Part shown: positions 2,403 to 32,680 of the stretch, piece after piece
Layout of the letters: every line of letters starts with the position of its first letter
Position numbering within the stretch: position 1 is the stretch's first letter
Assembly (NCBI GenBank): GCA_048939625.1
Contig: JBHLPH010000006.1
Location: 28,476 to 92,475 of the forward strand
Source: Promethearchaeota archaeon
GTDB lineage: Archaea; Asgardarchaeota; Hermodarchaeia; Hermodarchaeales; Hermodarchaeaceae
Length of the DNA: 64,000 nt
Direction: 5' to 3'
The notes under the pieces: model-generated
What the model saw: the letters and a program-made list of their open reading frames with translations, nothing else
The model's database searches: none
Told to the model about the DNA's origin: nothing
Position numbers and translations under genes: made by a program

Positions 2403-2777
2403 ATGGTTGAACGTGTTGTTGTTCCTGTCTTGGATGAGGCAGGTGAAGCAAGCCAATTATCTCCACATTTTGGTCGAGCTCCACTCTTTGCAATCGTTCA
2501 TTTCTCAGAGAATAGAGAGATTGGGAAAATTGAGTTCGCCCCTAATAGGAGTGAGCATTTCGGAGGACAAGGACGGCCCCCAGATATTCTTCTTAGCTTT
2601 GTACCAAATACAGTTATCACCTTTGGTATGGGTCCTCGAGCCCTTCGACGATTCCAAGCAGAGGGTGTTGCGGTCATGCAAGCAACATCACAGAATTTAG
2701 GCGAAGTCCTTAGAGCGTATCAGAACGACCAATTGATGGAATTAACTGAAGGATGTCGTGAAGCACGGCATAAATAA
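2403..2777 (+). CDS. Second NifX/NifB-C-terminal-type cluster-binding domain protein
   Basis: VVVPVLDEAG..LSPHFGRAPLFAIV...TVITFGMGPRALRRFQAEGVAVMQA. ATG 2403 is preferred because GGAG lies 9 nt upstream; ATG 2394 is also possible. Confidence 0.75.
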   Translation: MVERVVVPVLDEAGEASQLSPHFGRAPLFAIVHFSENREIGKIEFAPNRSEHFGGQGRPPDILLSFVPNTVITFGMGPRALRRFQAEGVAVMQATSQNLGEVLRAYQNDQLMELTEGCREARHK

Positions 2778-2819
2778 TTGGATGCTTTTCATTGCGTTTG
2801 GATTAAGGTGTAAAATAGA

Positions 2820-3665: not shown

Positions 3666-4537
3666 TGAAAGAGCTTGTGATTGTAAGTGGAAAAGGCGGA
3701 ACAGGAAAGACATCCATTGCTGCTTCATTAGCCGCTTTAGCGCCGAATGCAATTTTGGCAGACTGTGATGTTGATGCCCCTAACCTGCATCTACTGCTTG
3801 CTCCTGAAATCAAATCTTCCGAAGAATTCATTGAGGCGAAAGTCGCCATAATTAATCCCGAATTATGTACCAGTTGTGGTGTTTGTGAAGCTGCATGCAA
3901 ATTTGATGCAATAACACCTGATTACCAAGTTGACCCAATTATGTGTGAAGGGTGCGGAGTCTGTTACGTAAGCTGTCCAACCTCAGCAATTGAGATGCAA
4001 GAACGACTTTCAGGTTACATCTATTCTTCCGAAACCAAGTATGGTCCTATGGCTCATGCCCTCTTGCTTGCAGGTGAAAGTAATTCAGGAAAACTAGTAA
4101 CGCGTGTACGAGAACTCGCATCGAAATTAGCAACACAGCATGAGAAGGATCTTATCATAATTGATGGGCCACCAGGTATAGCTTGTGCAGCCATATCAGC
4201 AATTACTGGTGCTTCAGCGGGTCTCATTGTTACTGAACCCACAATGGCTGCTATTCATGATATGGAAAGAATCCTTGAACTTTTCGAACACTTTCGCATC
4301 CCTGTGAGTGTACTCATTAACAAAGCCGATTTGAACCGACAAAAAACTTCTGAAATTCGGAACTATTGTCAGCAGAAAGGTACACCCATTTTAGGTGAAT
4401 TGCTTTATGATACCATTATGTACAAAGCCGTTGTTGCTGGACGTCCTATTGTTGAATTCGCACCAAGGAATCACCTCTCCAAGGCTTTAGAAAATATATG
4501 GAAAAACGTTGAGCAACAGCTCAACGCCCATGATTAA
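3665..4537 (+). CDS. Second MinD/ParA-type ATPase with inserted ferredoxin domain
   Basis: MKELVIVSGKGGTGKTS, CTSCGVCEAACK and CEGCGVCYVSCP. ATG 3665 overlaps the upstream TGA (TGATG) and is preferred over the track start at 3611. Confidence 0.85.
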   Translation: MKELVIVSGKGGTGKTSIAASLAALAPNAILADCDVDAPNLHLLLAPEIKSSEEFIEAKVAIINPELCTSCGVCEAACKFDAITPDYQVDPIMCEGCGVCYVSCPTSAIEMQERLSGYIYSSETKYGPMAHALLLAGESNSGKLVTRVRELASKLATQHEKDLIIIDGPPGIACAAISAITGASAGLIVTEPTMAAIHDMERILELFEHFRIPVSVLINKADLNRQKTSEIRNYCQQKGTPILGELLYDTIMYKAVVAGRPIVEFAPRNHLSKALENIWKNVEQQLNAHD

Positions 4538-4588
4538 AAAAATGGGGAACCGTCTTGATCTGATTCTGATGTAGTAGGGTGCCGAAGA

Positions 4589-4873
4589 CTATTTGCTAAT
4601 TTTTGCTCCACAGCTAGGACAATAATTAGCGTCGATTGGGAGGGGAGCGCTACATTTAGTACAGAAATTTATGTTGGATGCGAATTGGTTTGGGAAGGGA
4701 GGGGTTTGTTCAGAAGCGGATCCTTGATTTTGTTGTTGTGAGTATAGGTACCAGCAACTACCACGCCCATAGAGCCAACCGGGTCGTTGCCATGGAGGCA
4801 GATGTGAGAAAGGTCCATTACCTGGCCATTGGCCTTGATTGCGTCCACGTCCTCGATTTCCACGTTGCCACAT
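4589..4873 (-). CDS. Small zinc-ribbon protein with RG/Q-rich N-terminal low-complexity region
   Basis: C-terminal FCTKCSAPL...YCPSCGAKI and N-terminal MWQRGNRGRGRNQGQW. A GAGGTGAT motif lies 8 nt upstream of the ATG. Confidence 0.55.
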   Translation of the reverse strand: MWQRGNRGRGRNQGQWPGNGPFSHLPPWQRPGWLYGRGSCWYLYSQQQNQGSASEQTPPFPNQFASNINFCTKCSAPLPIDANYCPSCGAKISK

Positions 4874-4890
4874 TTAGGTTATCACCTCTT

Positions 4891-4943
4891 TTTGTGTTTA
4901 TGCACACAAGTATTTTGTGTATATGCACAGAAATATATAAATG
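4891..4943. promoter_or_regulatory. Divergent promoter region with two copies of a 16-nt direct repeat (tttgtgtTtatgcaca / tttgtgtAtatgcaca), followed by a TATA-like aaatatataaatg
   Basis: Read directly: the repeats occupy 4891-4906 and 4914-4929 (23-nt spacing), each with a TGTG-N6-CACA core. The TATA-like box is at 4931-4943, about 35 nt before ATG 4974. Confidence 0.4.
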
Positions 4944-4973
4944 TATCCAACCAGCAATTGTTAATGAACAAAA

Positions 4974-5297
4974 ATGAGATATCGTCGTGGATGGGGCGGC
5001 CGCGGACGTCCGCCAAAACCAGTTAGTTTAGGCCAGGTACCTGCACAGACCTCTTTTATCCCAACCGAGATTAAAAACAGTAACCCCCTACACCTCTACG
5101 CATCAGAACTTGAAGCAATGCGCCTTGTAGACAAGGATAGCCTGGAGCAAAAGGATGCAGGAAAAAAAATGGGAGTGTCTCGAGGAACGGTATGGCGTCT
5201 TCTTCAAAGCGGTCGAAAGAAAGTCATTACTGCACTAACAGAAAGCCGTCCTTTGATAATTGTTGTCAAGGACGATAAGCTTCCAGAAAAATATTGA
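4974..5297 (+). CDS. DUF134 (UPF0251) putative DNA-binding protein, second copy
   Basis: MRYRRGWGGRGRPPKP...LYASELEAMRLVDKDSLEQKDAGKKMGVSRGTVWRLLQSGRKKV, paralogous to the ORF at 1514-1951. Confidence 0.8.
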   Translation: MRYRRGWGGRGRPPKPVSLGQVPAQTSFIPTEIKNSNPLHLYASELEAMRLVDKDSLEQKDAGKKMGVSRGTVWRLLQSGRKKVITALTESRPLIIVVKDDKLPEKY

Positions 5298-5333
5298 AGA
5301 TAGGTCCAAAGGATAAGAGAAGGACTAACGGTC

Positions 5334-6329
5334 ATGGATTTGGTTTATGGCCCAGTAATGTCGTGGCGGTTCGGAAGGTCTTTAGGAATTGATCCTGTTC
5401 CGCCCCCTAAAAGATGTACCTTTAACTGTATTTACTGTCAATTAGGACCCACGCAATTTCCTGTAAAATCTATATCGCGAGCCCAGCATGCATTCCCTCA
5501 CACCGAGATGTTACGGAAGAATCTTGAGAATTATCTCCGTCAATTGTCTGTTGAGAGTTTAGATGTGGTGACGTTTTCGGGTTCTGGTGAGCCCACTCTT
5601 AACTTAGAATTAGGATCAATGGTGAAAATCGTACGTAAACAGGTTCCAGAGCTGCCTGTTGTATTATTAACAAATGGATCGGTATTAGGAAATCGAAGAG
5701 TACTAAGAAACCTTAGGGAATTTGACATTGTCACAATTAAATTCGATGCTGGGAATGATGCAACCCACCGTGTAATTAACAGACCGCTGATTGCATTCCG
5801 TCATGCCCAACTGATTAAAGCCATTCATGAATTTCGAAAAATAAGTGATGTTACGATAGCTCTTGAAGTAATGCTACTGAAAACGGACTCCGGGTTTTCA
5901 TCAATAAGTGGAGCAGCCCGTGAGTCTTTAGTGCAGGAATTAATTAAAGTTGCACCAGTTGTGGATTTGATTCAGCTTTACACGCCTTGGCGACCACCTA
6001 GTAATAAACATGTAAAGCCAATTGAAAAATCCGAATTAGTGGATTTTGCTTCTACACTTGAAGATACATACGAACCGGAACGAATTTGGATTTACGGTAT
6101 TCATGATGCACGAAAAGAGAGTGCCACTTGGAAGGCGCACCAATCCCTACAAACTGATTTGTTAACCATGCTTCAGCGTCGCCCATGTCGACTCAGGGAT
6201 TTATCACAATCACTTGATATTCCAGCTCATTCCTTAATCTCAATGATTTCGCAACTTCGCCGAACACGCCAAATCATCACTAGAGAACAGACCAATGAAG
6301 TCTTTTATTATGCTCCGATTGAAAGTTAA
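5334..6329 (+). CDS. Radical SAM protein with C-terminal winged-helix-like domain
   Basis: CTFNCIYC (CX3CX2C) near the N-terminus after YGPVMSWRFGRSLGI. The C-terminal segment RLRDLSQSLDIPAHSLISMISQLRRTRQII looks like a wHTH. Confidence 0.8.
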   Translation: MDLVYGPVMSWRFGRSLGIDPVPPPKRCTFNCIYCQLGPTQFPVKSISRAQHAFPHTEMLRKNLENYLRQLSVESLDVVTFSGSGEPTLNLELGSMVKIVRKQVPELPVVLLTNGSVLGNRRVLRNLREFDIVTIKFDAGNDATHRVINRPLIAFRHAQLIKAIHEFRKISDVTIALEVMLLKTDSGFSSISGAARESLVQELIKVAPVVDLIQLYTPWRPPSNKHVKPIEKSELVDFASTLEDTYEPERIWIYGIHDARKESATWKAHQSLQTDLLTMLQRRPCRLRDLSQSLDIPAHSLISMISQLRRTRQIITREQTNEVFYYAPIES

Positions 6330-7588
6330 TCGTTAGGAAAGTATTTGTTTGGATCTTCATGGAATACTTTCTCAGCGGTTTTATTCGCACCAGGCGTATC
6401 TAGTTCTAAATCACGCTTTGTACCTTTGGATTCATGAAGAACTTCTTTGAAAACATCACTTTGGATTATCAGCCGCATGATTTCGCTACTTCCTGTCCAA
6501 ATAGTGGCAAGACGGGCATCACGGAATAACCTCTCGATGGGATAGACGTCGGTGTATCCAATTCCTCCTAGAATTTGCATAGACTCTGAAACAGATTGAA
6601 GACATGCCTCTGTGGCGAAGAGCTTGGCTTGAGAGACAGCTTTCCGACTGGGGTTACCTGCATCAGCAAGACGTGCAGCGCGGTAGATAAGACCACGCGC
6701 AGCATCCAAGGCTGTGGCACAATCAGCAATTTTGAAGCTGATTCCTTCAAATCGGCTAATAGTTTTGCCAAAGGCTTCGCGTCGTGCAGCATAGCGGATA
6801 GCAAGTTCTAACGCAGCCTGCCCTAATCCGATCGCTCCTGCAGCGGAGGTAAGTCGTTCAGGCACCATCATGGCATTGAAAATGTCAGTGGCACCATCTA
6901 ATTTTCCAATCAGGTTTGTTTTAGGCACTTTTACATCTTTTAGGACAATTCGGGCAGCTCCCATCCCTCGGCAGCCCATAAGGCTGTAGTGTTCATCGAC
7001 TTCAACGCCCATATCTCGATCCACAAGGAAGGCACTCATTGACTTATGAGGAGGAGCCTTTGTGTTGGTCTTTGCATATATCAAGAAATAGTCCGCGCCA
7101 ATGCCACCTGCTACGAATCGTTTCTCACCATTGATTACAAAATGATTACCTTGGGGGACTGCTGAGGTTATTGTGCCAAAGAAATCAGACCCACCTCGCG
7201 GTTCAGTAAGTCCTTCGGCACAAATTTTTTCACCCCGAAGTGTTGGAGCGAGGTAGGTTTTCTTTTGAGCGGTTGAACCGAAGAGATTGATAGCCTCTCC
7301 CACGATACTTGGAAGAGAATAGGCACAGCCTAAGGCGATTCCTAAAACGCCGATTTCCTCGATAGCCAGCATTTCGGAGACCCAATTGAGATTGCGTCCA
7401 GCGAATTGTTTTGGAAAACGCAAACCGATGAGGTTGGCCTTAGTTGCCGCCTTAATGAAGTCGTATGGGTATTCTTGCTCATTTCCATCCATCCGAATAA
7501 TTAGGCTGGGATCAACTTTATTTCGCACAAACTCCCGAACTTCATCTCGGATTTGTCGTTCACCGTCGGTGAGTAATATATCAAACAT
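6326..7588 (-). CDS. Acyl-CoA dehydrogenase
   Basis: Full-length ACAD pattern (GLTEPRGGSDF, ..QILGGIGYT.., IWTGSSEI). ATG 7588 has GAGGTG upstream and is preferred over TTG 7606. Confidence 0.9.
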   Translation of the reverse strand: MFDILLTDGERQIRDEVREFVRNKVDPSLIIRMDGNEQEYPYDFIKAATKANLIGLRFPKQFAGRNLNWVSEMLAIEEIGVLGIALGCAYSLPSIVGEAINLFGSTAQKKTYLAPTLRGEKICAEGLTEPRGGSDFFGTITSAVPQGNHFVINGEKRFVAGGIGADYFLIYAKTNTKAPPHKSMSAFLVDRDMGVEVDEHYSLMGCRGMGAARIVLKDVKVPKTNLIGKLDGATDIFNAMMVPERLTSAAGAIGLGQAALELAIRYAARREAFGKTISRFEGISFKIADCATALDAARGLIYRAARLADAGNPSRKAVSQAKLFATEACLQSVSESMQILGGIGYTDVYPIERLFRDARLATIWTGSSEIMRLIIQSDVFKEVLHESKGTKRDLELDTPGANKTAEKVFHEDPNKYFPND

Positions 7589-7638
7589 GCTGACACCTCT
7601 TTTCAAGATTGTTCAGAGTATTTGTATACCTTATAATG

Positions 7639-7995
7639 TTAGTCTAATAAAGCGCTTAAGGTGTTGGATTCGGATGCTGTTCGCATAATGATTATGGCAT
7701 CCTCCGGACAGACCATTTCACAAGCAAGACATTCCAGACACGCAGTTTCTTCGACAGGATCAGCTTTGATTTCCCCGGATGCACTTTCGAATGGTTCAAA
7801 AACATCCTCTGGACATACCTTGATGCATTTCAAGCAGCCAGTGCAACTATCAAAATCAACGGCCACTCGAGTTCCATGAATCCCATGATGCGAAGTGCCA
7901 GATTGCCATACCCAATGGTTATGATGGCGGTTCGTTTGTTTCCATTTTGATTGGAAGCTTGGGTCGATTGGCATTGGTATCACGATTTCGCACAC
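7639..7995 (-). CDS. 2x[4Fe-4S] ferredoxin-domain protein
   Basis: CTGCLKCIKVCP and CLECLACEMVCP. The start is uncertain (GTG 7995 or ATG 7974). Confidence 0.7.
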   Translation of the reverse strand: MCEIVIPMPIDPSFQSKWKQTNRHHNHWVWQSGTSHHGIHGTRVAVDFDSCTGCLKCIKVCPEDVFEPFESASGEIKADPVEETACLECLACEMVCPEDAIIIMRTASESNTLSALLD

Positions 7996-8140
7996 ATATT
8001 ATTGACAGGTCGTCGGTTCTCTAACCATCTGATAGTGCCCGTATATCTTAAGTACAGTGATGGTTCGAGATGGTGTCAAATGTGTTTGCAGAATTACTCT
8101 CTACACAGATGGGGTGTTCCAAATCTCACGGATAAAGGGA

Positions 8141-8641
8141 ATGCAAATAACTTCGCTTTCTAAGCACAATCTCGAGATAGCAGCACGAATCTATGCGCAG
8201 GGTCTATTAATGGAAGAACCGCCTGGCTCCTCCGAGTCCTTAGAGGAGTTGGTAGAGTTAATGCGACTCCATTTGCAAACAGCTTTGGATGTCAGAACGA
8301 ATAGGCGTATTTGGCTTGCAATAGTCAAAGAACAAGTGAAAGGCCTCGTTGATTTCTATCATCGTCAAAGTGAACTCTTTATTCGATTTATCTGTGCAAT
8401 TCCTCCTCGTAAGGGCGTTGGGACTTGGCTTCTACAAAAACTAGCCCAGTATGCAATAAATCATAGAATTGATATAGTGAACGCCACGGTAAGTTCTCGT
8501 GATTCCCGCGCTCAGCGTTTTTATTTTCAACACTTGAATTTTCAAAAGACTGGAAGTCGAATAGATGAGCTAGGATTAGAATTGTATCTGGCTGAGATTT
8601 CTTCTCAAACCTTGTTAGAGAACTGTATTCGACGGGAATGA
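8141..8641 (+). CDS. GNAT-family N-acetyltransferase (probable)
   Basis: Motif-A-like PPRKGVGTWLLQKLAQYA and ..RAQRFYFQHLNFQKTG. ATG 8141 is preferred over the longer track ORF. Confidence 0.6.
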   Translation: MQITSLSKHNLEIAARIYAQGLLMEEPPGSSESLEELVELMRLHLQTALDVRTNRRIWLAIVKEQVKGLVDFYHRQSELFIRFICAIPPRKGVGTWLLQKLAQYAINHRIDIVNATVSSRDSRAQRFYFQHLNFQKTGSRIDELGLELYLAEISSQTLLENCIRRE

Positions 8642-8710
8642 AAAAAGAGAAAGAGGAACCTTCACGTCCAGGAGGGGACATGAAGGCTATTATGGATAAA
8701 TCGGGGAGAA

Positions 8711-9211
8711 TTAGTAGCGTCGTCCGCGGTCACCACGGTCACCACGGTCACCACGGTCACCACGGTCACCACGATCGCGTCGATCGCCACGTCGATATCC
8801 ACCTCGACCACCGCCGTAGCTGCGGCGACGGTAACGTTGTTCGTGCTCAGCAGCGGACATATCGTTTTCAGCGTCAATTTCTTCTATACCGTCTTCGGCT
8901 TCGTTAATTTCTCCGTATCGACCTATGTTAAGGCGGAGGTGTCCTTGAAACAGGCTGGTATAGCCTTTTTCCAGACGGTAGGTTTTGTCGACTTCGATTG
9001 CTTCAATATTGTCATCCCATAGACTCAATAAGACAACACCGGTGGAATCGCCAGCTGTAGCGTCAACAACTCGGTGGGTCTCACCATCTTTGCGGGAGGT
9101 GACTTCGCGTTCTTCGCCCTTCTCGACGACTTTGAAGGTGATGTTCAAACTTTTCATATAGGGTCGCAGTTCTGCGACTGTAGCCTCAACGGGCTCTCGG
9201 TCGTAGCTCAT
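8711..9211 (-). CDS. Single OB-fold ssDNA/RNA-binding (SSB-like) protein with C-terminal RGG/(RGD)n tail, copy 1
   Basis: MSYDREPVEATVAELRPYMKSLNITFKVVEKGEEREV...LLSLWDD...LFQGHLRLNIGRYG, with the tail GGGRGGYRRGDRRDRGDRGDRGDRGDRGDRGRRY. ATG 9211 is chosen by alignment with copy 2. Confidence 0.75.
   Translation of the reverse strand: MSYDREPVEATVAELRPYMKSLNITFKVVEKGEEREVTSRKDGETHRVVDATAGDSTGVVLLSLWDDNIEAIEVDKTYRLEKGYTSLFQGHLRLNIGRYGEINEAEDGIEEIDAENDMSAAEHEQRYRRRSYGGGRGGYRRGDRRDRGDRGDRGDRGDRGDRGRRY
8728..8772. repeat. Five perfect tandem copies of the 9-bp unit ggtcaccac, with degenerate copies to about 8795, encoding (RGD)n on the minus strand
   Basis: Read directly from the sequence. Confidence 0.95.
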
Positions 9212-9740
9212 TTTAGGTACCACGTTGCTTCTATACTCAGGCTTCCAACCAAATCCTTCCTCAAGGTCTGCCGCAAAGATGAGGTAGCCACAAGAGAGAA
9301 CGATTAAGAGTTTTAGACCTGCTTCTTTCTCCAAACCAAACCCAATATAAAAAGGCTACGGGCATCCGCCAGAGAGCCATTATCGTATTTTTTGTAACCT
9401 CGGAATAGATAAATAGCCTCTTAATACATCGAAAACAAAAAATGTAACTAACTCAAACAAATTTTCTCCTTTTCGAGGATTACTGGATGGTGAAATGAAT
9501 GGCAAAAATAAATCCGTTAATAGATAATTGTAAACCGCGTAGTGTTCATCTTGAGAAGGAAAAACAGACAGAACTGAATAGCAGTCTTGACGAAATGCTT
9601 GAACCTTCTGCAAGGCATCGTGTGTCAAGTTTTCAGGAAGCTCTAAGAATGATTAAGCAATTTACCTACATTATCAAAGACTGTAACTACCTAATCGAAC
9701 CTGAAAATTGAGTAGTATTCGTGGGTTCTTAGAGGAGCTG

Positions 9741-10451
9741 ATGAAGTTGGATTCTGAATTGGATATTTCGGTTCTCAATCTTCTTAGTTATGGAATGTAT
9801 GTTGTTGCGGCAAGAAAGGATAAGCGGGTGAACGGGCAGATTGTGAATACTGTATTTCAAATAACTGCATCTCCGCTTCAGGTAGCGTTGAGCATCAATA
9901 AGGAAAATTTGACTCATGAGCTCATTGAGAAGAGTAGGATGTTATCGGTGTCGATTTTAGGTGAGGCAACTCCGATGACGTTTATTGGCCGGTTTGGGTT
10001 TCACTCTGGTCGTGAACTGGATAAGTTTCAAAATGTCGAATTTCTGGAAGGCATCGAAGACTGCCCCATCGTTGTCGATAATGCAATTGCCTACCTTGAA
10101 GTTAAGGTGATCGATCAAGTGGATGTTGGAACTCACACGCTCTTCATTGGAGAGGTAAAAGGTGCAAAGAAGCTGAAAGAGGGAAAACCTTTGACATATG
10201 CCTACTATCACGAGGTGAAGGGAGGAAAAACTTCCAAACGTGCAGCCACTTATCTTCCACCAACCTCCAAGTCCGAGGTTTTCTCACCTAATGAAGGAAA
10301 ATACCGATGTGAGGTATGTGGCTGGATCTACGATCCCGAGAAGGGAGACCCCGAACATGGAATTGCACCAGGTACAGCTTTTGCTGATATTCCTGAGGAT
10401 TGGGCCTGTCCAGTGTGTGGAGCATCAAAAAGCCAGTTTAAACCTATTTAG
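9741..10451 (+). CDS. Flavin-reductase-domain / rubredoxin fusion (high-molecular-weight rubredoxin type)
   Basis: An N-terminal flavin reductase-like domain is followed by C-terminal [46 protein letters not shown] 9741 has GAGGAG upstream; TTG 9708 is possible. Confidence 0.8.
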
Positions 10452-23318: not shown

Positions 23319-24260
23319 CTAAGTCTCAAGTAGAGAGTTAAGCTGATTTTGACCCAGTCCCGGAAATTTTCGATGAGGGAACATAACCATGGTGTGAACT
23401 ACGGTACTATATGGAGACTCCTTGAGTTCCAGATCAATTGCTTCCACATGATGTAAGGTATCGACGGCAAAATCAAGGAGCAGAGTGGGTTCATCACTTA
23501 GAAGATATGAGGTCCAATATTCTAGCGGGTATCGCTGCTCAAGCCAAGCAACCAACTTTCTGGGACTAGTATTCTCTGCATTATAACGGATACGACTTCG
23601 AAACTCGATTTGATTACCAGCGCTGCGAAGCCATTCAAGTGTAAAACGTAAAGTGCCCGAATTTTGTAATTGGCGAAGCACCATGCGAACACGCTTGGCG
23701 CTCATCTCTGTTCTTCGAGCCATATCTACGACTGGCATCCGTGGATTTTCTCGCAGACACCTTAATACATTCAATTTAATTTTCGTGAAATCAAAGTTTA
23801 AGGCCTGAGGTTTTGAATGCACTTCTTTTGTGATATGGGGATGCATTTCGATGACATCATGAATTTCGACATCAGACACACGATCAAGACCACGGAGAAA
23901 TTGTCCAAAGTTCACGGTTCCCATGTTACCTCGAACTTCCGCTTCCACATCATAGGTGCCATCCGCCAAACGTGAGACTAACCGAACGACCGGACTTTGC
24001 CCAATTTGGTGAATGAATTCATGTGCATCTTCGGATCCGAGGGTTGATACCTCAGCTATGACCAAGTGGGCCCCAAGAGCCTCTGAGTTGAGTTCAACGA
24101 GAAACCGCTGAATTACTCCTAACTCAATCAGCTTTTCAATGCGGCTTCGAATCGTTTTACTCGACACTTCTAATTTTCGTGCTAGTGCTCGAAAGGACTG
24201 CCGACAATTGCCTTCTAATTCGGCTATAATACCTTTATCAACCAGGTCCACGGGGGTCAC
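23319..24260 (-). CDS. Fused double Lrp/AsnC-type transcriptional regulator, paralogue 1
   Basis: The first HTH is DLVDKGIIAELEGNCRQSFRALARKLEVSSKTIRSRIEKL and the second is LNVLRCLRENPRMPVVDMARRTEMSAKRVRMVLRQL. It aligns with 28318-29301 and 31583-32545. GTG 24260 follows GGAGGG. Confidence 0.8.
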   Translation of the reverse strand: MTPVDLVDKGIIAELEGNCRQSFRALARKLEVSSKTIRSRIEKLIELGVIQRFLVELNSEALGAHLVIAEVSTLGSEDAHEFIHQIGQSPVVRLVSRLADGTYDVEAEVRGNMGTVNFGQFLRGLDRVSDVEIHDVIEMHPHITKEVHSKPQALNFDFTKIKLNVLRCLRENPRMPVVDMARRTEMSAKRVRMVLRQLQNSGTLRFTLEWLRSAGNQIEFRSRIRYNAENTSPRKLVAWLEQRYPLEYWTSYLLSDEPTLLLDFAVDTLHHVEAIDLELKESPYSTVVHTMVMFPHRKFPGLGQNQLNSLLET

Positions 24261-24495
24261 CGAACCCTCCAACTAACTGTACATTCAGGTTAAAGAGGTA
24301 TATATCCATTCATGTTCACGGTTTCTAGCCATGTAAGCCCCGAAAACAGGATTTTACACCGGATTGTTCAAAAATGGGTAAAAAATTGGTTAGCAAAGTT
24401 CATTCTTGAACCTCTAAGCTCCCCTTGATTGATATGTGATGCCGCCTTTGGGTTACATGTTCTCAAGAACCTCATAATTGGATGGTGATGGAAAA

Positions 24496-25315: not shown

Positions 25316-25750
25316 CTAATTCGCCTTCAATTTTGGTGGTTTACATTGAGTGAATAAGGTCTTGCTAGGTTCTTTGTCAAAATAATATGAAGCAACCCAG
25401 ACACCCTCATCGCTAAAGAGATCTAGATTAAACCCGATTGTTTGGAGATTTAGAAGATATTGAAACAGCAGAATTGTTTCTTCAAGGGTTAGACGAAGTT
25501 CAGGTTGATTGAGTGTGGTCATCTCATTGGATGATAAGTTGGCATCTAGCCCCCACATCTTTTCAGGAAGAATCACCTCGATATCCATCCGGATTCGCTC
25601 TGGTTCATCTGATTGTCGGACGAGGAGGATTCGGATTCGATTGGTTTCTTGTACAGTGACAGCCATTTCAGAGATTTGATTAAACACGAGTTCATCTTCA
25701 TGAATGGAACGCAGTCGCCTGTATTCTTTAATCAAATCCGAAAACCTCAT
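25316..25750 (-). CDS. Hypothetical protein (144 aa)
   Basis: An ORF with an ATG start and coding-like composition, but no recognisable domain. Confidence 0.45.
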   Translation of the reverse strand: MRFSDLIKEYRRLRSIHEDELVFNQISEMAVTVQETNRIRILLVRQSDEPERIRMDIEVILPEKMWGLDANLSSNEMTTLNQPELRLTLEETILLFQYLLNLQTIGFNLDLFSDEGVWVASYYFDKEPSKTLFTQCKPPKLKAN

Positions 25751-26096
25751 GTCATCCTAGCTCCTTGTGGGGTCGCCCCTCCAATTGCGTGGATAATAAG
25801 CGTAAAGAATGACTGGTGAGGGTGGGTTTTCTATTGACCGGTACTAGGGAGGGTCAAAAAAGTCTGCAAACAGAAGAAACATGGCTGTTCTGGAACGTGA
25901 ACCCGTGCTAAATGGAACCCCACTGATTCTGGTAAAGAAATCGCTCAGAGGCAAGGCTTTTTATAGGGGTGAACGTTTGGCAGGTGTATCAGCACCCAAT
26001 GGCGAATTGTGTTTGGGAAAAAATCCAGGTATGGTAGAGTCCCGAGTTACGTTCTCTTTTTGGATCCTGATTTGATATAGACACGTGGTACCGAAA

Positions 26097-26594
26097 ATGA
26101 GCTACGATAGAGAGCCTGTTGAGGCAACAGTCGCAGACCTGCGACCCAGTATGAAAAGTTTGAACATCACCTTCAAAGTCGTCGAAAAAGGCGAAGAACG
26201 CGAAGTCACCTCCCGCAAAGACGGGGAAACCCATCGTGTTCTTGATGCTGTCGCCGGTGACTCCACTGGCACCGTTATTCTTAGTTTGTGGGACGATATG
26301 ATCGACACCGTCGAACAAGACAAAAGTTACCGCTTAGAAAACGGTTACACCAGCTTGTTCCAAGGCCACCTCCGATTGAACATCGGACGCTATGGTGAAC
26401 TAAAAGACACAGACAGTGAAATCGAAGAAATCGACATGGACAACGATCTCTCCGCTGCCGAACACGAACGCCCCCCACGCCGCTATGGCGGCTATAGTCG
26501 GGGTTATAGTGGCGGTGGTGGTGGTTATCGTCGTGGTGGCGGCGGTTCACGCCGTGGCGGACGAGACCGAGATCGCGGTCGTGGTCGATACTAA
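26097..26594 (+). CDS. Single OB-fold SSB-like protein with RGG tail, copy 2, inverted relative to copy 1
   Basis: MSYDREPVEATVADLRPSMKSLNITFKVVEKGEEREVTSRKDGETHRV..., with the tail YGGYSRGYSGGGGGYRRGGGGSRRGGRDRDRGRGRY. The upstream acgtggtaccNaaaATG is shared with copy 1. Confidence 0.8.
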   Translation: MSYDREPVEATVADLRPSMKSLNITFKVVEKGEEREVTSRKDGETHRVLDAVAGDSTGTVILSLWDDMIDTVEQDKSYRLENGYTSLFQGHLRLNIGRYGELKDTDSEIEEIDMDNDLSAAEHERPPRRYGGYSRGYSGGGGGYRRGGGGSRRGGRDRDRGRGRY

Positions 26595-26692: not shown

Positions 26693-27232
26693 TTAGTTCG
26701 ATTCACGATCAATTCGTGACCATTTGAAGCCACGAGACCGGCGAACAGGTGGATTGCGACGGTTTGGGATTCGTTTGTTTCCCTTTGAATCTTGTGATGA
26801 TGAGCGAGACTTTGAGGATAAATTCCGTTCGGTATTTACTTCAGAGATTGGGTTGACTGCTGGTTCGAGTTTTCCGTTTCGTCCCAGACTGACTTGTAAT
26901 CGTCCTTGAAATAGACCTGATTGCCCCCCAATGATCCGAAACGCCTTCCCATCTTCAATTTGGGTAATCTCTTCATCCCATAATGTTAAGAGCATAACAC
27001 CGGTTTCATCGCCGATAAGCACATCGGCAACTTGATGGTTGGAGCCATCACTGCGGCTTTTGACCTTCCGGATGGCTTGGGTTTTTAGAACTTGAAATTT
27101 AATCGTGATTCCTCGTTGATAGGGCTGGAGATGGACGAGTTTCTGTGCTTGCTTACTTGACACAACAATGACCTTTCGTGAGGTTGCTGATCTGCGAGTC
27201 CAAAAAGCCGCCGTGACCCACAGATACACCAC
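26693..27232 (-). CDS. Divergent OB-fold paralogue (copy 3) with a basic Ser/Arg-rich tail and no RGG
   Basis: KLVHLQPYQRGITIKFQVLK...MLLTLWDEEITQIEDGKAFRIIGGQSGLFQGRLQVSLGRNG aligns with copies 1 and 2. The start is uncertain (GTG 27232 or, by alignment, GTG 27163). Confidence 0.65.
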   Translation of the reverse strand: MVYLWVTAAFWTRRSATSRKVIVVSSKQAQKLVHLQPYQRGITIKFQVLKTQAIRKVKSRSDGSNHQVADVLIGDETGVMLLTLWDEEITQIEDGKAFRIIGGQSGLFQGRLQVSLGRNGKLEPAVNPISEVNTERNLSSKSRSSSQDSKGNKRIPNRRNPPVRRSRGFKWSRIDRESN

Positions 27233-27343: not shown

Positions 27344-28180
27344 TCATTCTGAGTCCTTTATTTCCTCACCCGGTGTGATGATCACCTTTTTCTGACGCCG
27401 TCGCCAGACAAGGAAACCGCCAACCACCAAACATAACCCGATAGCCCACGGGGTGACTAACAAGACCATCGGCAGCTCATCATCATATGGTGGTGGGGGT
27501 GGTCCATTATCGGGATTATTGTCAACGCGAATGTTGTCAATCCATTGGTGAGAGGTCGTGTAATTGTGCCAGAATGAGATAAAGAAAAATGCGGAGGCAC
27601 TGAAAGTGTTTTCGTGAACGGGCCAATTATCGATAAAGATCTCGTTGGTCGTCCGATTCAGCCAGACATAGAGGTACCCGTCGTAGCGGCGGACGATTTC
27701 AACGTGCATCATCTCATAAATCGATCGTGAATCATCTCCCAGTGTTGTGTTTTTGTAGCCATCCATGATTCGACGAACATTGTTCTCCATGAGCACGAGT
27801 TGATATTCACCCCTTTCTGTTCGCAAGTAATATCCATTGCTGGGATAATCGAGATTGGCCACATCGAGTGCGATGAAGAAGACCTCCCAACCACCGTGCA
27901 AGTACGTGTCCCACGAATAGATGTCAAAACTCCAGAAACCATAGGCATTGGTACTGGCACGAGATGCGTAATTTTGATAATCACCTGTGGCGTAGAGCCG
28001 ATCTTGTGGATACCCCTCCGGCACCATTGTGAACCCTCCAATGTATACAGTCCAGTCCTCGAGAGTTCCATCGAACTCCTCAATCCATTGGAGAATCGCG
28101 ATGCGGGAATCAGGGATTGTAAATCTCACAAAAAGCAATGTAGCTAGAAACAAAACCGGGAAAAGCAGCCTTTTCTTCAC
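27344..28180 (-). CDS. P1: signal peptide, probable ConA/LamG-like jelly-roll ectodomain, Pro-rich linker, and conserved VTPW-TM-RRRQKK-ITPGEE C-terminus
   Basis: It is paralogous to P2 and P3 (GFWSFDIY, HVEIVRRYDGYLYVW, WIDNIRVDNNPDNGPPPPP, LLVTPWAIGLCLVVGGFLVWRRRQKKVIITPGEE). GTG 28180 lies 7 nt after GGAGGG, the same spacing as in P2. Confidence 0.8.
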   Translation of the reverse strand: MKKRLLFPVLFLATLLFVRFTIPDSRIAILQWIEEFDGTLEDWTVYIGGFTMVPEGYPQDRLYATGDYQNYASRASTNAYGFWSFDIYSWDTYLHGGWEVFFIALDVANLDYPSNGYYLRTERGEYQLVLMENNVRRIMDGYKNTTLGDDSRSIYEMMHVEIVRRYDGYLYVWLNRTTNEIFIDNWPVHENTFSASAFFFISFWHNYTTSHQWIDNIRVDNNPDNGPPPPPYDDELPMVLLVTPWAIGLCLVVGGFLVWRRRQKKVIITPGEEIKDSE

Positions 28181-28317
28181 GTACAAGCCCTCCAACCTGA
28201 CAGGAAATATGTTATCGTCTCTTTTGTGTTGGTTTGATTTAAGTGGCTGTGAGTTATTGGGGTCATAAAAGTGCCGAAAAAAAGTAAAAATCGTCTTATT
28301 TGTAACCCTGCCCCGTA

Positions 28318-29301
28318 TTATTCAGGTAGTTGGAGGGTGTCCCAGAACGCTTCGTTAAGTCCGGGATAGAATCGATGCTGATAATGGATGATTTGTTTGA
28401 CGGAAACAACCCCGGGAGCCGCTCTGACGGCTCTGATGAGTTCAGGGGTCTGGCTCATGTATTCAAGCAGAAACAAGGTAAAAATCACCGGCTCTGAGGC
28501 ACTAGCAAAAGTGTACCAGATTTCCAAGGGATATCGCTGTTGCAACCACTCCACAAGCGCCCATCTCGCATCCGAGCCCCCCTGATACCCTATACGGACT
28601 AAAAACCGAGTATACCCCGTTGCCGCCACATCTGAATCAATGCGCGCATGAAAACACGCCAGGTTGGACAGCCGATCGCCTACGCCTTTGGCTTTCACCC
28701 AAAACTCAGAAGTGGATCCCTCACGAAGAAGTAACTTATCGAGAATCCGCCGTACCCGTCGAGGGCTAAATCCCGAACGTTGACTGATTTCCTTGATTTG
28801 CATCCGCAAATCATGCCTGAGGCACGCCAAGACATGCACATCTTCAGGTTTGAGTTCGCATTTTTGGCCCCGTTGAACGACGAGCGTATGAAACTCAACT
28901 TCCGATATTTCTGGTTGTTCATGAAGAAAGTTGGTGAGTTCATCCAAGCCCTTAGACCCCTTATACATTCCCCAACAGAGAAGATCCCCATCAGCAAGAA
29001 TGGTTATTATGTCAATCATAGGACACGCGCCAAGCCGGTTCAGAAGGGCTTCGTTAGTCGTTGAGTCTGTGGTGGTGAGAAACGCCCAGAAGTATTCAGC
29101 ATCCAGCATGGCCAGCGACGGATAAATCGTGAACCGAAGAATCACCTTGTTTTCAAGGAGGCGATCATAGCGTTTTTTCACCGAGGTAACCGACAGATTC
29201 AGCCTCCGAGCCAAAGCATGGAACGAAATCCGACCGTTTTCTATCAATGCCATGACAATATCCTTATCGATTTGGTCCACACATACCACCAAGAAACCCA
29301 A
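28318..29301 (-). CDS. Fused double Lrp/AsnC-type transcriptional regulator, paralogue 2
   Basis: The HTHs are DKDIVMALIENGRISFHALARRLNLSVTSVKKRYDRLLE and VHVLACLRHDLRMQIKEISQRSGFSPRRVRRILDKLL. The TTG start follows AGGAG. Confidence 0.8.
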   Translation of the reverse strand: MGFLVVCVDQIDKDIVMALIENGRISFHALARRLNLSVTSVKKRYDRLLENKVILRFTIYPSLAMLDAEYFWAFLTTTDSTTNEALLNRLGACPMIDIITILADGDLLCWGMYKGSKGLDELTNFLHEQPEISEVEFHTLVVQRGQKCELKPEDVHVLACLRHDLRMQIKEISQRSGFSPRRVRRILDKLLLREGSTSEFWVKAKGVGDRLSNLACFHARIDSDVAATGYTRFLVRIGYQGGSDARWALVEWLQQRYPLEIWYTFASASEPVIFTLFLLEYMSQTPELIRAVRAAPGVVSVKQIIHYQHRFYPGLNEAFWDTLQLPE

Positions 29302-29392
29302 GCATCACTCCTACACGCTAATAGGGTAAATAGTCAGCGGTGTAATTCTCTTTGAAAGATCAAATAAGACCAAAAAATAGTTCTATAGTCGA

Positions 29393-30262
29393 CTACGCTG
29401 ACTCCTCGAGTTCCTCTCCAGGCGTAATCTCCACCTTCTTTTGGCGGCGCCGCCACACCACCAAAGCACCCACGACCACACATAAGCCAATCGCCCAAGG
29501 GGTTACCAACAGGACAATTTCAAGACCGGACCCACCAATAAGAGGGGGTGGAGGAGGAGGTGGTCCATTTTCGGGATTATTGTCCACTTGAATGTTGTCA
29601 ATCCATTGAGTATAATTGTGGCGCATTCTGATACCAAAATAAGAACAAGTCGTAGGGCAAGGGCCCGGATGAAGGGTTTCGTTGGTTTGGAAGGAAATTC
29701 CCGTTTCGGGCTCATCTCCTGTATAGTTGAGCCACACATACAAATGTCCCTGAGGTGTTCGGACGATGTCTACATGAACCATCTCAATAATGTGAGGCCC
29801 ATATAAGGGCTCTACAAACCCACCATGGTAGGAGATGATACCATTCATGACTTTTTGGAGTTCGTACTTGTGCGGTTTTGCTACATCACCCCCATACCAA
29901 GTCTCCTTGTATTCTATTTGGTAGGAATTGAGTGGATCTCCTGAAGATGCGAAGCCGTCAGCGAGGAAAAAAATAGTATAACGCCTATGGTTATCATTTT
30001 TAACATAATATATGTCGAACCGCCACCAGCCATAGGCGACGTCACTTTCATGGAAGATGAAACTTTCAAAGCGGTTTGTTGCAGTGAGCCGACCGTTATC
30101 AATGGCAAAACCTCCACGTAAGGTTGTCCAGTTATCGAGAGCATCGTCACCAGTGAAGGTTTCACCCCATCTAGGTGTCGCAGTGCTTGAATCGGGAACT
30201 GTAAATGTGACGCAAAGCAATGCCATGAACAGCATTGCTGCGAAGCACAGCCTTCTTCTCAT
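29393..30262 (-). CDS. P2: paralogue of P1 and P3 with the same architecture
   Basis: MRRRLCFAAMLFMALL signal, YGWWRFDIYY, HVDIVRTPQGHLYVW, WIDNIQVDNNPENGPPPPPPP and LLVTPWAIGLCVVVGALVVWRRRQKKVEITPGEE. Confidence 0.85.
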   Translation of the reverse strand: MRRRLCFAAMLFMALLCVTFTVPDSSTATPRWGETFTGDDALDNWTTLRGGFAIDNGRLTATNRFESFIFHESDVAYGWWRFDIYYVKNDNHRRYTIFFLADGFASSGDPLNSYQIEYKETWYGGDVAKPHKYELQKVMNGIISYHGGFVEPLYGPHIIEMVHVDIVRTPQGHLYVWLNYTGDEPETGISFQTNETLHPGPCPTTCSYFGIRMRHNYTQWIDNIQVDNNPENGPPPPPPPLIGGSGLEIVLLVTPWAIGLCVVVGALVVWRRRQKKVEITPGEELEESA

Positions 30263-30490
30263 TCAGAGACCCTCCAACCTGAGCCATATTGACTAGTATT
30301 GTATATATCTGTTCGGATTTCATCGGCAGCTATGGTAGCTTGTGACCTGAGATATTCGGTACTTCCTGGCATTTAAGCCACGTTCACCGGTTCAGGGCAG
30401 AAACAGGACAAACTGCATGGAATTTAGAATATTTTGTTTCCTAAGGAGGAACCAAAAGAGCCAGGATTGACTTGCACTTGAAGAAAATGG

Positions 30491-30524
30491 GAATACCAGG
30501 GACGTGGATGCCGCCCTGGTATTC
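30491..30524 (-). terminator. Hairpin with an 11-bp perfect stem (gaataccaggg / ccctggtattc) and a 12-nt loop, about 110 nt downstream of the P3 stop; on the minus strand it is followed by cattttcttc
   Basis: Read directly from the sequence. The function (terminator or RNA element) is an inference. Confidence 0.3.
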
Positions 30525-30631
30525 GTGTCCTATGCGGATGGAGTGTGTATTTTTGAAAACATTCGACTCGGGTAACTATTCTTCGTGAAGGCTCAGTGTG
30601 AGAATCTGGATCGATAATCAACCTGATGACA

Positions 30632-31444
30632 TTATTCTTTGAGTTCTTCTCCTGGTGTTATGTCCACTTTCTTTTGGCGGTGTCGCCAAACTACTAATCC
30701 TCCTACTACTAAGCATAAACCAATAGCCCAGGGCGTTACGAGCAGAACTTCCGGCGGAATTTTATTAATTGTTTCAGTGTTTAAAGCGGGGTCAATGGGA
30801 TCTGGTCCGTTCTCTGGATTGTTATCAACGCAAATGTTGTCAATCCATACCTGCTGATGGTGGTCAAGAACGATGTCAAAATAGGCAGAGGTGGTATGAC
30901 TGACATCATAAGTGTCAAAGAAGATATGGTTCGTTGAGTAATTCGCCCAGACATACATGTACCCATCATATCTTCGAACGATGTCAAAATGCATCATGAT
31001 ATGAATTTGATCGTACAAAGTGCCATTACGAAACCCATCCAAGTAATGTGGTTCATAATCCATCGTTTTCATTATTTGATAGAAAAAGGCCCAGCCCTCA
31101 AGACAATATCCATTTTGTGGGCGATCCCAGAGTATATCCTCAGAAGCAATAAAGAATACGTGCCAGCTCAGATGGTAGTCAGTTCTGATGAAATACACAT
31201 CGAAGCTCCAATACCCATAGGAGTTCGTACTCTCATGGCGCATGACGTTTATTTCACGGTTTGTTCCCGAGACTCGGCCGTCCTCAATAACAAATCCGCC
31301 TTCAACTATCGTCCAGCCATCTAAGACGCCATCATCAAAGTCGTCCGTCCATTGGATGCTCGCGGAGCTTGATAGTGAGAATTTACCGATGCTCAAAAGC
31401 AGAAGCAGCATCAGGACTGGAATTATTACGAAGCGTTTTCGCAT
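30632..31444 (-). CDS. P3: paralogue of P1 and P2 with the same architecture
   Basis: MRKRFVIIPVLMLLLLL signal, IQWTDDFDDGVLDGWTIVEGGFVIEDGRVSG, YGYWSFDVYF, HFDIVRRYDGYMYVW, WIDNICVDNNPENGP and LLVTPWAIGLCLVVGGLVVWRHRQKKVDITPGEE. ATG 31444 is preferred. Confidence 0.85.
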   Translation of the reverse strand: MRKRFVIIPVLMLLLLLSIGKFSLSSSASIQWTDDFDDGVLDGWTIVEGGFVIEDGRVSGTNREINVMRHESTNSYGYWSFDVYFIRTDYHLSWHVFFIASEDILWDRPQNGYCLEGWAFFYQIMKTMDYEPHYLDGFRNGTLYDQIHIMMHFDIVRRYDGYMYVWANYSTNHIFFDTYDVSHTTSAYFDIVLDHHQQVWIDNICVDNNPENGPDPIDPALNTETINKIPPEVLLVTPWAIGLCLVVGGLVVWRHRQKKVDITPGEELKE

Positions 31445-31582
31445 GACATACACACTCCAGAAGTGGCTTCCAAAAACTGAGGTCACTCCACTAAGGAGAA
31501 GTGTGTCTTCGTGGCATATTAACCCGTGTTTGGTGATCGGTTTACAAAGTGAACGCTACTTATAAGGCGCTTGGACGGTTTG

Positions 31583-32545
31583 TCAACCGAGGAGGTGTTG
31601 CCAGAACCGTTCGTTTAATCCTGGGTAGTAATGGTGGGCAAAATAGACGATGGGTCGAACGGATACCACATCTTCGAGTTCTTTGATTCGTTTGATGATT
31701 TCAGGTGAATAATTGGCGATGTCGACAAGGAACATCGAAAAGAGGACTGGCGCCGAAGCACTGGCGTGGGTAAACCAGTATTCCATGGGATATGTTCGTT
31801 TTAGAAGGGCGACGATGGATCGGCGTGTTTCATCGCCACCCTGAAACTCGGTGCGGGCATAGAATCGGGTTGCCCCACCTTCGGCGACGTCACCATCGGT
31901 GCGGGTATGAAAACATTGTTGGGCGGTCCGATAGTCGCCAACGCCGTTTTCGTGGAACATTTGTTCGTCAGCAGAACCTTCGGTGCCAATTAATTCGGTG
32001 AGCAGTTTTCGGACCCGTCGTTGGGTCATCCCAGTGTTTTGGGCAATGTCTTTGATGGGCATGCGCACGTTTTCGCGCAGGCAGCGAAGGACTTGGAGTT
32101 GCATGGATGTGAGGGGGCAGCGCTTTCCTCTTTCGATTAAAATCGTATGAAATTCAACCTCACGGATATCGTCGAGCTCATGGAGGAACAAGGTGAGTTC
32201 GTCGAGTTCTTTGGGTCCGACGTATTTTCCCCAGACCATCACGTTGCCATCTGCTAGCAGATTGACATTGTTGATCATGGGGTAGGCACCCAGGAAATCG
32301 CGGAAGGTTTCGCTGGGTGGATGATGTTTCAATGTTAGGATAGCTGTGAAGAAGGAGGCGTCAAGCATGGCGTAGCTGGGGATGATGAAATAGCGGCGAA
32401 TGACCTTCGCTTTTTCCATCTTGAGAATCCGGTTACGCACAGCTGTAACAGAGAGCCCCAGTTTTCGCCCGATAGCCCGGTAAGAAATCCGTGCGTCCTC
32501 TAATAATGTGTAAAGAATCTGTTTGTCAATTAGGTCCACGGGCAT
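31583..32545 (-). CDS. Fused double Lrp/AsnC-type transcriptional regulator, paralogue 3
   Basis: The HTHs are DKQILYTLLEDARISYRAIGRKLGLSVTAVRNRILKM and LQVLRCLRENVRMPIKDIAQNTGMTQRRVRKLLTEL. ATG 32545 follows GGGAGG. Confidence 0.85.
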   Translation of the reverse strand: MPVDLIDKQILYTLLEDARISYRAIGRKLGLSVTAVRNRILKMEKAKVIRRYFIIPSYAMLDASFFTAILTLKHHPPSETFRDFLGAYPMINNVNLLADGNVMVWGKYVGPKELDELTLFLHELDDIREVEFHTILIERGKRCPLTSMQLQVLRCLRENVRMPIKDIAQNTGMTQRRVRKLLTELIGTEGSADEQMFHENGVGDYRTAQQCFHTRTDGDVAEGGATRFYARTEFQGGDETRRSIVALLKRTYPMEYWFTHASASAPVLFSMFLVDIANYSPEIIKRIKELEDVVSVRPIVYFAHHYYPGLNERFWQHLLG

Positions 32546-32680
32546 CCTTTGACCTCCCAAGCGCTACACTCTTTCACCTTATAGCGTAAATATGCAACCC
32601 TTCTCACCATTCAATAGGCTTTAGTGAATGACCCAGGCAAACGGAGAGAAAAACGTGTTGATGAGCCTCAAAGGTCTTAG

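Follow-up and report, generated by a model that had tools for sequence, protein, structure and literature searches.

Fast-diverging lectin-type surface proteins with a near-invariant membrane and tail module, recurrently paired with fused double-Lrp regulators, in an Asgard archaeon

The locus described here belongs to a Promethearchaeota archaeon (GenBank assembly GCA_048939625.1, contig JBHLPH010000006.1, positions 28,476 to 92,475 of the forward strand). This whole stretch of 64,000 nucleotides is called the window, and all positions are counted from its first letter. Three paralogous genes, P1, P2 and P3, encode type-I membrane proteins with a concanavalin A (ConA)-like ectodomain; P1 and P3 are each directly preceded by a gene for a fused double Lrp/AsnC protein, R1 and R2, respectively. 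With a confidence somewhat above even, we regard the locus as a lineage-specific variable cluster of glycan-binding type-I surface receptors or adhesins with fused-Lrp local regulators, in a Hermodarchaeota-like Asgard archaeon. Its constituents are of known kinds: a ConA-like domain of the carbohydrate-binding module (CBM) type, an Lrp regulator and a local regulator-target pair. What is new is the Asgard P family, the fused regulator that is its recurrent companion and, most of all, an invariant transmembrane and tail module under a fast-evolving ectodomain. In limited literature searches we found no described system built on this pairing, in agreement with the preliminary description of the locus, made from the sequence alone; nor did they return anything relevant on fused Lrp proteins, DUF1080 or archaeosortase in Asgard archaea. 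The genes and the module are the following.

27344-28180, minus strand: P1, paralogous type-I ConA-like surface protein of 278 residues, GTG start, with the conserved transmembrane and tail module
28318-29301, minus strand: R1, second fused double Lrp/AsnC protein, 47% identical to R2
29393-30262, minus strand: P2, paralogous type-I ConA-like surface protein of 289 residues, with the conserved transmembrane and tail module
30632-31444, minus strand: P3, type-I membrane protein of 270 residues, with a signal peptide, a CBM66/DUF1080-type ConA-like ectodomain, a Pro-rich stalk and the transmembrane and tail module
approximately 30635-30745, minus strand: conserved transmembrane and tail module of P3
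31583-32545, minus strand: R2, fused double Lrp/AsnC protein (feast/famine regulatory protein, FFRP) of 320 residues, with two repeats of a winged helix-turn-helix (HTH) and a RAM-type domain

The open reading frames (ORFs) of the three P proteins are present as first described and are 46-51% identical in pairwise comparison. Each protein has exactly two hydrophobic segments, the N-terminal signal and the C-terminal membrane segment that had been predicted, as well as a Pro-rich stalk between ectodomain and membrane module and 2-4 N-x-S/T sequons. One of these sequons, W[LA]N[YR][ST], is positionally conserved among P1-P3. The ectodomain motifs reported earlier were all recovered (LD.W....GGF, G[YFW]W[SR]FD[IV]Y, H[VF][DE]IVR...G[YH][LM]YVW.N and WIDNI.VDNNP[ED]NGP); the conserved charged positions of the ectodomain, in P3 numbering, are D34, D38, H70, D82, H152, R157 and D202. 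The start of P1 is most likely the GTG at 28180, as was assumed before, with CAGGTTGGAGGG ahead of it. Pfam gave no match for P1-P3 at E<=1, and no Pfam or NCBIfam family could be assigned to them.

Proteins that carry the same membrane module form a narrow P family, which comprises 10 clusters among 5.8 billion proteins, all from one Hermodarchaeota-like Asgard clade. Beyond the window, its members come from three genomes, to which we refer as L001 (a contig of GCA_016840185.1), L002 (GCA_016550405.1) and L003 (a 'Promethearchaeota archaeon' metagenome-assembled genome, MAG), and from a few metagenome contigs; the orthologues of P3 are P0001 (97% identical), P0002 (69%) and P0003 (55%). The nearest relatives of R2 are likewise annotated as 'Candidatus Hermodarchaeota' and 'Promethearchaeota' MAGs. 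The narrow P family thus consists of lectin-type membrane proteins that are restricted to Asgard archaea and had not been characterised. Searching 1.84 billion representatives with a profile added 426 more distant relatives at E<=1e-3, the wider P family, most of about 250 residues and with the full-length layout of P1-P3; the MAG from which one of them, P0017, comes is annotated as 'Candidatus Hodarchaeota'. The transmembrane helix is not conserved among these relatives: the proteins end 2-3 basic residues past the helix, often with a PGF-type motif before it. Such PGF-type anchors (PGF, helix, RRR) end P0012, P0013, P0019, P0024, P0040, P0049, P0054 and P0059, which were retrieved from sediment metagenomes together with Asgard-annotated homologues such as P0017.

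The C-terminal module, LLVTPWAIGLCLVVGGLVVWRRRQKKVxITPGEE, is near-invariant in all members of the narrow family, so that what had been noticed in the window alone extends to four genomes. Its cytoplasmic tail counts about 17 residues (tail peptide RRRQKKVDITPGEELKE). Between paralogues of the narrow family the ectodomains are 35-57% identical, against 70-97% for the module. Over the 33 codons of the module, 11-23 synonymous differences stand against 1-9 amino-acid changes; the non-synonymous divergence (dN) is 0.01-0.18 in the module and 0.39-0.77 in the ectodomain. The transmembrane and tail module is under strong purifying selection, and the P ectodomains diverge fast. Gene conversion was considered as a cause of this invariance and is ruled out by the synonymous sites of the module, which are saturated.

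Among the best 150 matches listed in the profile search of 1.84 billion representatives, the module never occurs without a P ectodomain; outside the P genes, it is also absent both from the 64-kb window and from 579 kb of related loci. A 40-residue module-only query against the 5.8-billion-protein database returned nothing, the known members included, a short hydrophobic query being unsuitable for such a search. Taken together, the helix is invariant, the tail is conserved past its basic cluster and the module is confined to one ectodomain family, which speaks against a general sorting signal and for contact with a conserved partner: judging from these patterns, the helix and tail would touch a conserved partner in or under the membrane.

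We obtained an AlphaFold2 model of P3 from an 11-sequence alignment, with a mean predicted local distance difference test (pLDDT) of 76.7 and a predicted template-modelling score (pTM) of 0.67. It is an all-β sandwich of about 15 strands, placed between an N-terminal and a C-terminal helix. A Foldseek comparison with the Protein Data Bank ranks CBM66 from the levanase of Bacillus subtilis first (4b1m, E=5e-8); YesU, two L-type lectins (Emp47p and VIP36), a legume lectin and GH16 glucanases rank below it. A profile of 40 P-family members also matches the CBM66 sequence (E=4e-5) over profile positions 42-207, nearly the whole ectodomain. Wider-family proteins give weak, sub-threshold matches to PF06439, and only P0011 exceeds the gathering score (29.9 against 26.8 bits). 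Since the structure comparison, the profile match and the weak PF06439 matches agree, the earlier prediction of a ConA/LamG jelly roll was right, with the CBM66/DUF1080 group as the nearest relatives.

P1-P3 are remote relatives of the CBM66/PF06439 superfamily, outside the Pfam family as defined. They have in common with it (for instance with the C-terminal module of levanase SacC, 4b1m and 4azz) the β-sandwich fold, an N-terminal 'DGW...G.W/F' strand and a C-terminal 'DN' strand. However, CBM66 is a module appended to an enzyme, whereas P1-P3 are stand-alone type-I membrane proteins below the Pfam thresholds and carry a conserved transmembrane and tail module of their own. In their design they also resemble the L-type lectin cargo receptors ERGIC-53, VIP36 and Emp46p/Emp47p: a signal peptide, a ConA-like lectin ectodomain, one transmembrane helix and a short conserved tail. 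Foldseek places Emp47p and VIP36 near the top of the matches of P3 (E about 3e-6 to 1e-5, template-modelling score about 0.48). Yet CBM66 is nearer to P1-P3 than these lectins are, and the likeness to lectin receptors is one of design, homology being unestablished. At E<=1, none of 3 narrow-family and 10 wider-family proteins has a legume-lectin-like Pfam match, and the P tails, which end in ELKE, KDSE, EESA and similar residues, have no KKxx, KxKxx or FF sorting motif at the C-terminus.

The P proteins would accordingly be pictured as follows. P1-P3 would leave the cytoplasm through Sec, probably receive N-glycans and be anchored by a single C-terminal transmembrane helix; a short Pro-rich stalk would carry their putatively non-catalytic CBM66/DUF1080-type sandwich. 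Most likely they would act as glycan-binding receptors or adhesins, towards polysaccharides, partner cells or surfaces of another kind. While the ectodomains diversify quickly, the helix and tail stay near constant, presumably held by the contact with a conserved partner.

Both regulators fit the preliminary description as well: R1 and R2 are paralogues, 47% identical, with two AsnC-type HTH domains each. PF13404 matches R2 (E=4e-20) and R1 (E=1.9e-15) each time in two stretches, near residues 9-49 and 150-191. The start of R1 may be the GTG at 29280 instead of the TTG at 29301. With phmmer, the N-terminal half of R2 (residues 1-138) aligns end-to-end with full-length Pyrococcus FL11/PH1519, and LysM/Lrp-type NCBIfam models score 37-54 bits. 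The AlphaFold2 model of R2 (pLDDT 83, pTM 0.76) has a three-helix winged HTH followed by a βαββαβ domain, twice; ahead of the second RAM domain lie some 25 inserted residues, which are poorly predicted. In Foldseek, each half finds Lrp structures, with target-normalised template-modelling scores of 0.62-0.70 at 19-24% identity. The Pfam RAM model, PF01037, does not match R1 or R2, in which the RAM domain was recognised by structure instead.

Each half of R thus has the composition of archaeal Lrp/AsnC proteins (Pyrococcus FL11/PH1519, LrpA, Sulfolobus LysM), an AsnC-type winged HTH and a RAM-type domain. Many Lrp proteins adjoin their likely target gene; R1 and R2 do likewise, and have a conserved promoter of their own. 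They differ from archaeal Lrp in joining two complete Lrp units in one chain of ~320 residues, with the ~25-residue insert, in RAM domains too diverged for PF01037, and in their neighbours, which are surface proteins rather than genes of amino-acid metabolism. R1 and R2 are covalently fused Lrp pseudo-dimers, which would bind DNA and act as ligand-responsive local transcription factors.

The window encodes a third protein of this kind.

23319-24272, minus strand: R3, third and more distant double Lrp/AsnC paralogue, 29% identical to R1, without an adjacent P gene

R3 has an orthologue in L002/L003 (87% identical) and shows that the regulator family is expanded. Elsewhere, the metagenomic locus L013 holds four double-Lrp paralogues within 13 kb (positions 2432-10410), one of them beside a P gene; another precedes a gene for a 203-residue protein with a signal-like N-terminus.

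Because adjacency within the narrow clade could be plain synteny, we turned to the wider P family, whose members are 25-30% identical to P1-P3. With a 13-sequence alignment, 79 metagenomic loci of this family were found, and their neighbour families were counted without bias. Pairing was defined by distance, as an R gene within 400 bp upstream of a P gene and co-directional with it; a census of immediately neighbouring ORFs was set aside on account of small spurious ORFs. The double-Lrp family is the most recurrent neighbour family in the 79 loci. An upstream, co-directional position relative to P is occupied by five of eight non-redundant R genes (L011, L013, L020, L050 and L072); of the 336 other genes, 25 are so placed (Fisher p=1.7e-4, odds ratio 21). 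In L007, a sixth locus, the N-terminal part of a divergently oriented R gene was seen.

In the R tree, the paired genes are spread over at least four clades, in between R genes whose neighbours are of other kinds. Moreover, the P genes of L011 and L013 are 70% identical and the R genes that adjoin them only 30%; from this exchange of partners it follows that the association holds at the level of families. Counting the narrow clade, R followed by P occurs outside the source genome in L001, L006, L011, L013, L020, L050 and L072. The cassette proposed in the preliminary description therefore stands as a pairing that recurs in related archaea, but not as a fixed unit: it is facultative, most P genes having no R and R genes also preceding other genes. 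R and P do not make up an obligate system: the two recur together, facultatively, as local regulator and likely target.

Some members of the wider P family have a different neighbour, a divergent gene of ~110 codons for a ribbon-helix-helix (RHH) protein (CopG-like, ...SRSEAVAA...). It was seen in L050 (12517-12891), L066 (2707-3081), L082 (3114-3440), L055 (55-393), L067 (7523-7837) and L051 (2156-2497), and is a second type of dedicated local regulator for the family.

The control regions of the locus are listed below.

32556-32592, minus strand: putative promoter and 5' region of R2, with TATA-like TATTTACGCTAT and, from 32562, GCTTGGGAGG with a Shine-Dalgarno-like GGAGG, 6 nt before the ATG at 32545
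31445-31582, minus strand: R2-to-P3 intergenic region of 138 nt, which holds the promoter and 5' untranslated region of P3
30263-30631, minus strand: P3-P2 intergenic region with the P2 promoter, containing GCTTAAATGCCAGGAAG, ATATATAC and, before the ATG at 30262, CAGGTTGGAGGG
30481-30523, minus strand: terminator-like hairpin gaataccaggg...ccctggtattc with a T-run, downstream of P3, which separates P3 from P2 and may terminate transcription

That the two regulator promoters are paralogous, as had been proposed, is borne out: R2 has TATTTACGCTAT at 32592-32581 and GCTTGGG at 32562-32556, R1 has TATTTACCCTAT at 29332-29321 and GCTTGGG at 29303-29297. The layout TATTTAC, about 20 nt, CTTGGGTGG and ATG is kept upstream of R1, R2 and the R paralogues of L001 and L013; it is most likely a TATA box, a transcription start and a Shine-Dalgarno region.

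The spacer between R2 and P3 is 85.5% identical to that of L001 and 79.9% to that of L006. In the comparison with L001, DNA identity is 81.3% for the R2 coding sequence, 61.6% for the P3 ectodomain and 51.8% for the region upstream of R2. Being conserved above the flanking coding DNA, the spacer probably has a dense regulatory content. It has TTAA(T)ATGCCA[CG]GAAG in common with the P2 promoter, whose blocks are kept upstream of P0009 (L003), P0008 (L001) and P0004 (L004). Downstream of P3, the ~260 nt from 30741 to 30481, hairpin included, are 96% identical to L003, against about 82% for the neighbouring genes, which suggests either a constrained element or a recent exchange. Rfam gave no matches at the locus.

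In the explanation that we favour, R1 and R2 would autoregulate from their conserved promoter and would also control the adjacent P promoters, with which the conserved R2-P3 spacer is consistent.

Comparison with relatives revises two statements of the preliminary description. In L001, the orthologues of R2, P3 and P2 (P0008) are 86%, 55% and 57% identical to the window proteins, respectively, and the contig ends after P0008 with the first 31 residues of an R1 orthologue (81% identical). The order R2-P3-(bla)-P2-R1 is thus common to the window and L001, bla being a beta-lactamase-family gene present in L001. It follows that this order predates the split of the two lineages and that P2, with an orthologue of its own, is not an extra copy as had been stated. 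The duplication of a whole regulator-plus-surface-protein unit, also proposed, is undemonstrable: the two R-to-P spacers cannot be aligned, and the 5' region of P1 is like that of P2, unlike that of P3.

The contigs L006 and L004 stem from one sample and carry overlapping fragments of the beta-lactamase-family gene, with the joint order R, P, bla(-), P, P, P. This gene, encoding a membrane-anchored serine beta-lactamase or penicillin-binding-protein-family protein, lies between the P3 and P2 orthologues (L001, 9860-11017, minus strand; L004, 2-1012, minus strand, with L006, 1397-1699, minus strand). It is absent from that position in the window and in L003, where a spacer of 369-510 bp is found instead.

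In L002/L003, the neighbouring genes are 73-96% identical to those of the window. Immediately after a P3-like gene there comes a P gene whose promoter and signal peptide are P2-like, and DNA homology resumes inside the P1 module (window position 27465) and continues downstream. The part from the tail of P2 through R1 to the P1 ectodomain is therefore missing, with the junction in the conserved module, as would result from recombination through that module. Between close relatives, then, the locus varies in copy number and content.

Several points weigh against our explanation, and some of them speak for an adjacency of R and P without functional meaning, with a double-Lrp family merely expanded in these Asgard genomes and R1/R2 regulating something else or acting globally. 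Roughly 85% of the wider-family P genes have no R neighbour, some having the divergent RHH regulator instead, and the three tandem P genes of L004 have no R between them. R2 relatives ~67% identical precede unrelated genes, for a protein of ~141 residues or one of 420; R paralogues stand before an abhydrolase gene in L001, before genes for 141-142-residue proteins in L086, L087 and L088, and before the gene for the 420-residue protein in L089. R3 is without a P neighbour, only one of the four R genes of L013 adjoins a P gene, and the adjacency in the narrow clade is of shallow evolutionary depth, where synteny is generally conserved. The link between R and the P promoters is itself deduced, and a search of the five intergenic regions revealed no operator motif that they convincingly share: 10-mer matches occur there in about the number expected by chance, except TATTTAC.CTAT, CAGGTTGGAGGG and TTAA(T)ATGCCA.GAAG, which look like core promoter or Shine-Dalgarno elements rather than an operator. 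Likewise, we infer the partner of the module from its conservation, and lectin activity would follow from the modelled fold. Nevertheless, R recurs beside P more often than any other neighbour in a census made without bias, its upstream co-directional placement is significant, the pairing is found in several R clades with exchanged partners, and the R2-P3 spacer exceeds the flanking coding DNA in conservation. A coincidental adjacency is therefore a serious but rather unlikely alternative. It is highly improbable, on the other hand, that R1 and R2 are Lrp-fold enzymes or scaffold proteins similar to the fused siroheme decarboxylase NirDL (AhbA/B family) instead of transcription factors. The top full-length Foldseek match of R2 is indeed NirDL (4ch7, E=2e-10, template-modelling score 0.55), with which R1/R2 have the fused double Lrp-like architecture in common, and there are weak matches to NCBIfam AhbA/AhbB and to Pfam NirdL-like_HTH. 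But identity to NirDL is 12%, against 19-24% per half for true Lrp regulators, and several R paralogues occur per locus. The reading is also disfavoured because R2 scores 13.5-16.8 bits with NF040707/NF040708 (AhbA/B), whose cut-offs are 125 and 140, and because no haem, nir or tetrapyrrole genes occur in the flanks, which encode methyltransferases, an epimerase, OB-fold proteins and peptidases.

The remaining alternatives concern the P proteins. The module could be a sorting signal of the archaeosortase/PGF-CTERM type, recognised and cleaved by an enzyme and exchanged for a lipid anchor; this would touch the module only and be compatible with our explanation of the rest of the locus, and we hold it to be unlikely. 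Its tripartite layout, with TPW as the short motif, then a hydrophobic helix and RRRQKK as the basic cluster, is that of PGF-CTERM proteins, and P0012, P0013, P0019 and P0024 of the wider family end in true PGF-type anchors. However, TPW replaces PGF in the narrow family, the helix does not vary, and conservation continues for 10-13 residues past the basic cluster, unlike in known sorting signals. The single ectodomain family with which the module occurs, in the matches and loci covered above, also speaks against it, and its NCBIfam matches lie far under the cut-offs (PVV_CTERM, 12.1 bits against 27; LPXTG_anchor, 11.7 against 15.9). No sortase gene was identified, among window ORFs that were partly screened. 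As for the ectodomain, it seems very unlikely that P1-P3 are surface-anchored enzymes, of the glycoside hydrolase or 3-keto-disaccharide hydrolase type, rather than binders. The wider family does weakly match PF06439, which is named 3-keto-disaccharide hydrolase, and GH16 laminarinases and lichenases appear in the Foldseek list; but the top matches in both structure and sequence are to the non-catalytic CBM66, a regular-expression search found the GH16 catalytic motif ExDxxE in 0/9 family members, and no conserved acidic pair stands out. Given this non-catalytic kin and the lack of ExDxxE, the modelled fold makes it more likely that the P ectodomain binds than that it catalyses.

Readings of the locus as a defence system or a prophage were rejected: the PADLOC and PHROGs libraries have no match for the P proteins and only generic HTH matches for the R proteins, and a fold search of BFVD returned generic ConA-like tail-protein domains only.

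Two further features of the window were noted. The minus-strand ORF at 25316-25750, of 144 codons and without a Pfam match, resembles by eye the 141-142-residue proteins encoded downstream of R2-like genes (L086, L087/L088, L089); its family would be a second recurrent partner of double-Lrp regulators. A convergent pair of Ssb-like OB-fold genes (PF21473) is found at 26085-26594 (plus strand) and 26693-27232 (minus strand). The plus-strand protein, 96% conserved in L002/L003, has a long RGG/RG-rich C-terminal tail, GGYSRGYSGGGGGYRRGGGGSRRGGRDRDRGRGRY; an archaeal single-strand-binding protein here bears an RGG box in the eukaryotic style.

Knowledge of the cell surface in Asgard archaea is scant, although its contacts with partner organisms have a central place in their biology and in models of the origin of eukaryotes. 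In the P family an unusual evolutionary pattern is found, a fast-changing outside on an almost frozen membrane and tail segment, and a dedicated class of fused double-Lrp regulators recurrently accompanies it. Should the tail have no partner, the locus would be a lineage-specific adhesin cluster with local regulators, useful for annotation and unsurprising. A quite improbable but more far-reaching idea is that the helix and tail (WRRRQKKVxITPGEELKE) are a signalling or trafficking handle, which couples glycan recognition by the diversifying lectin domain to a conserved intracellular partner. Such a handle could sequester the adjacent double-Lrp regulator at the membrane or release it; or it could engage Asgard membrane-remodelling or trafficking proteins, as a prokaryotic analogue of ERGIC-53/VIP36-like type-I lectin receptors. 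If the tail does bind a cytoplasmic partner, the archaea closest to eukaryotes would possess, in the P proteins, a transmembrane receptor system of a simple kind.

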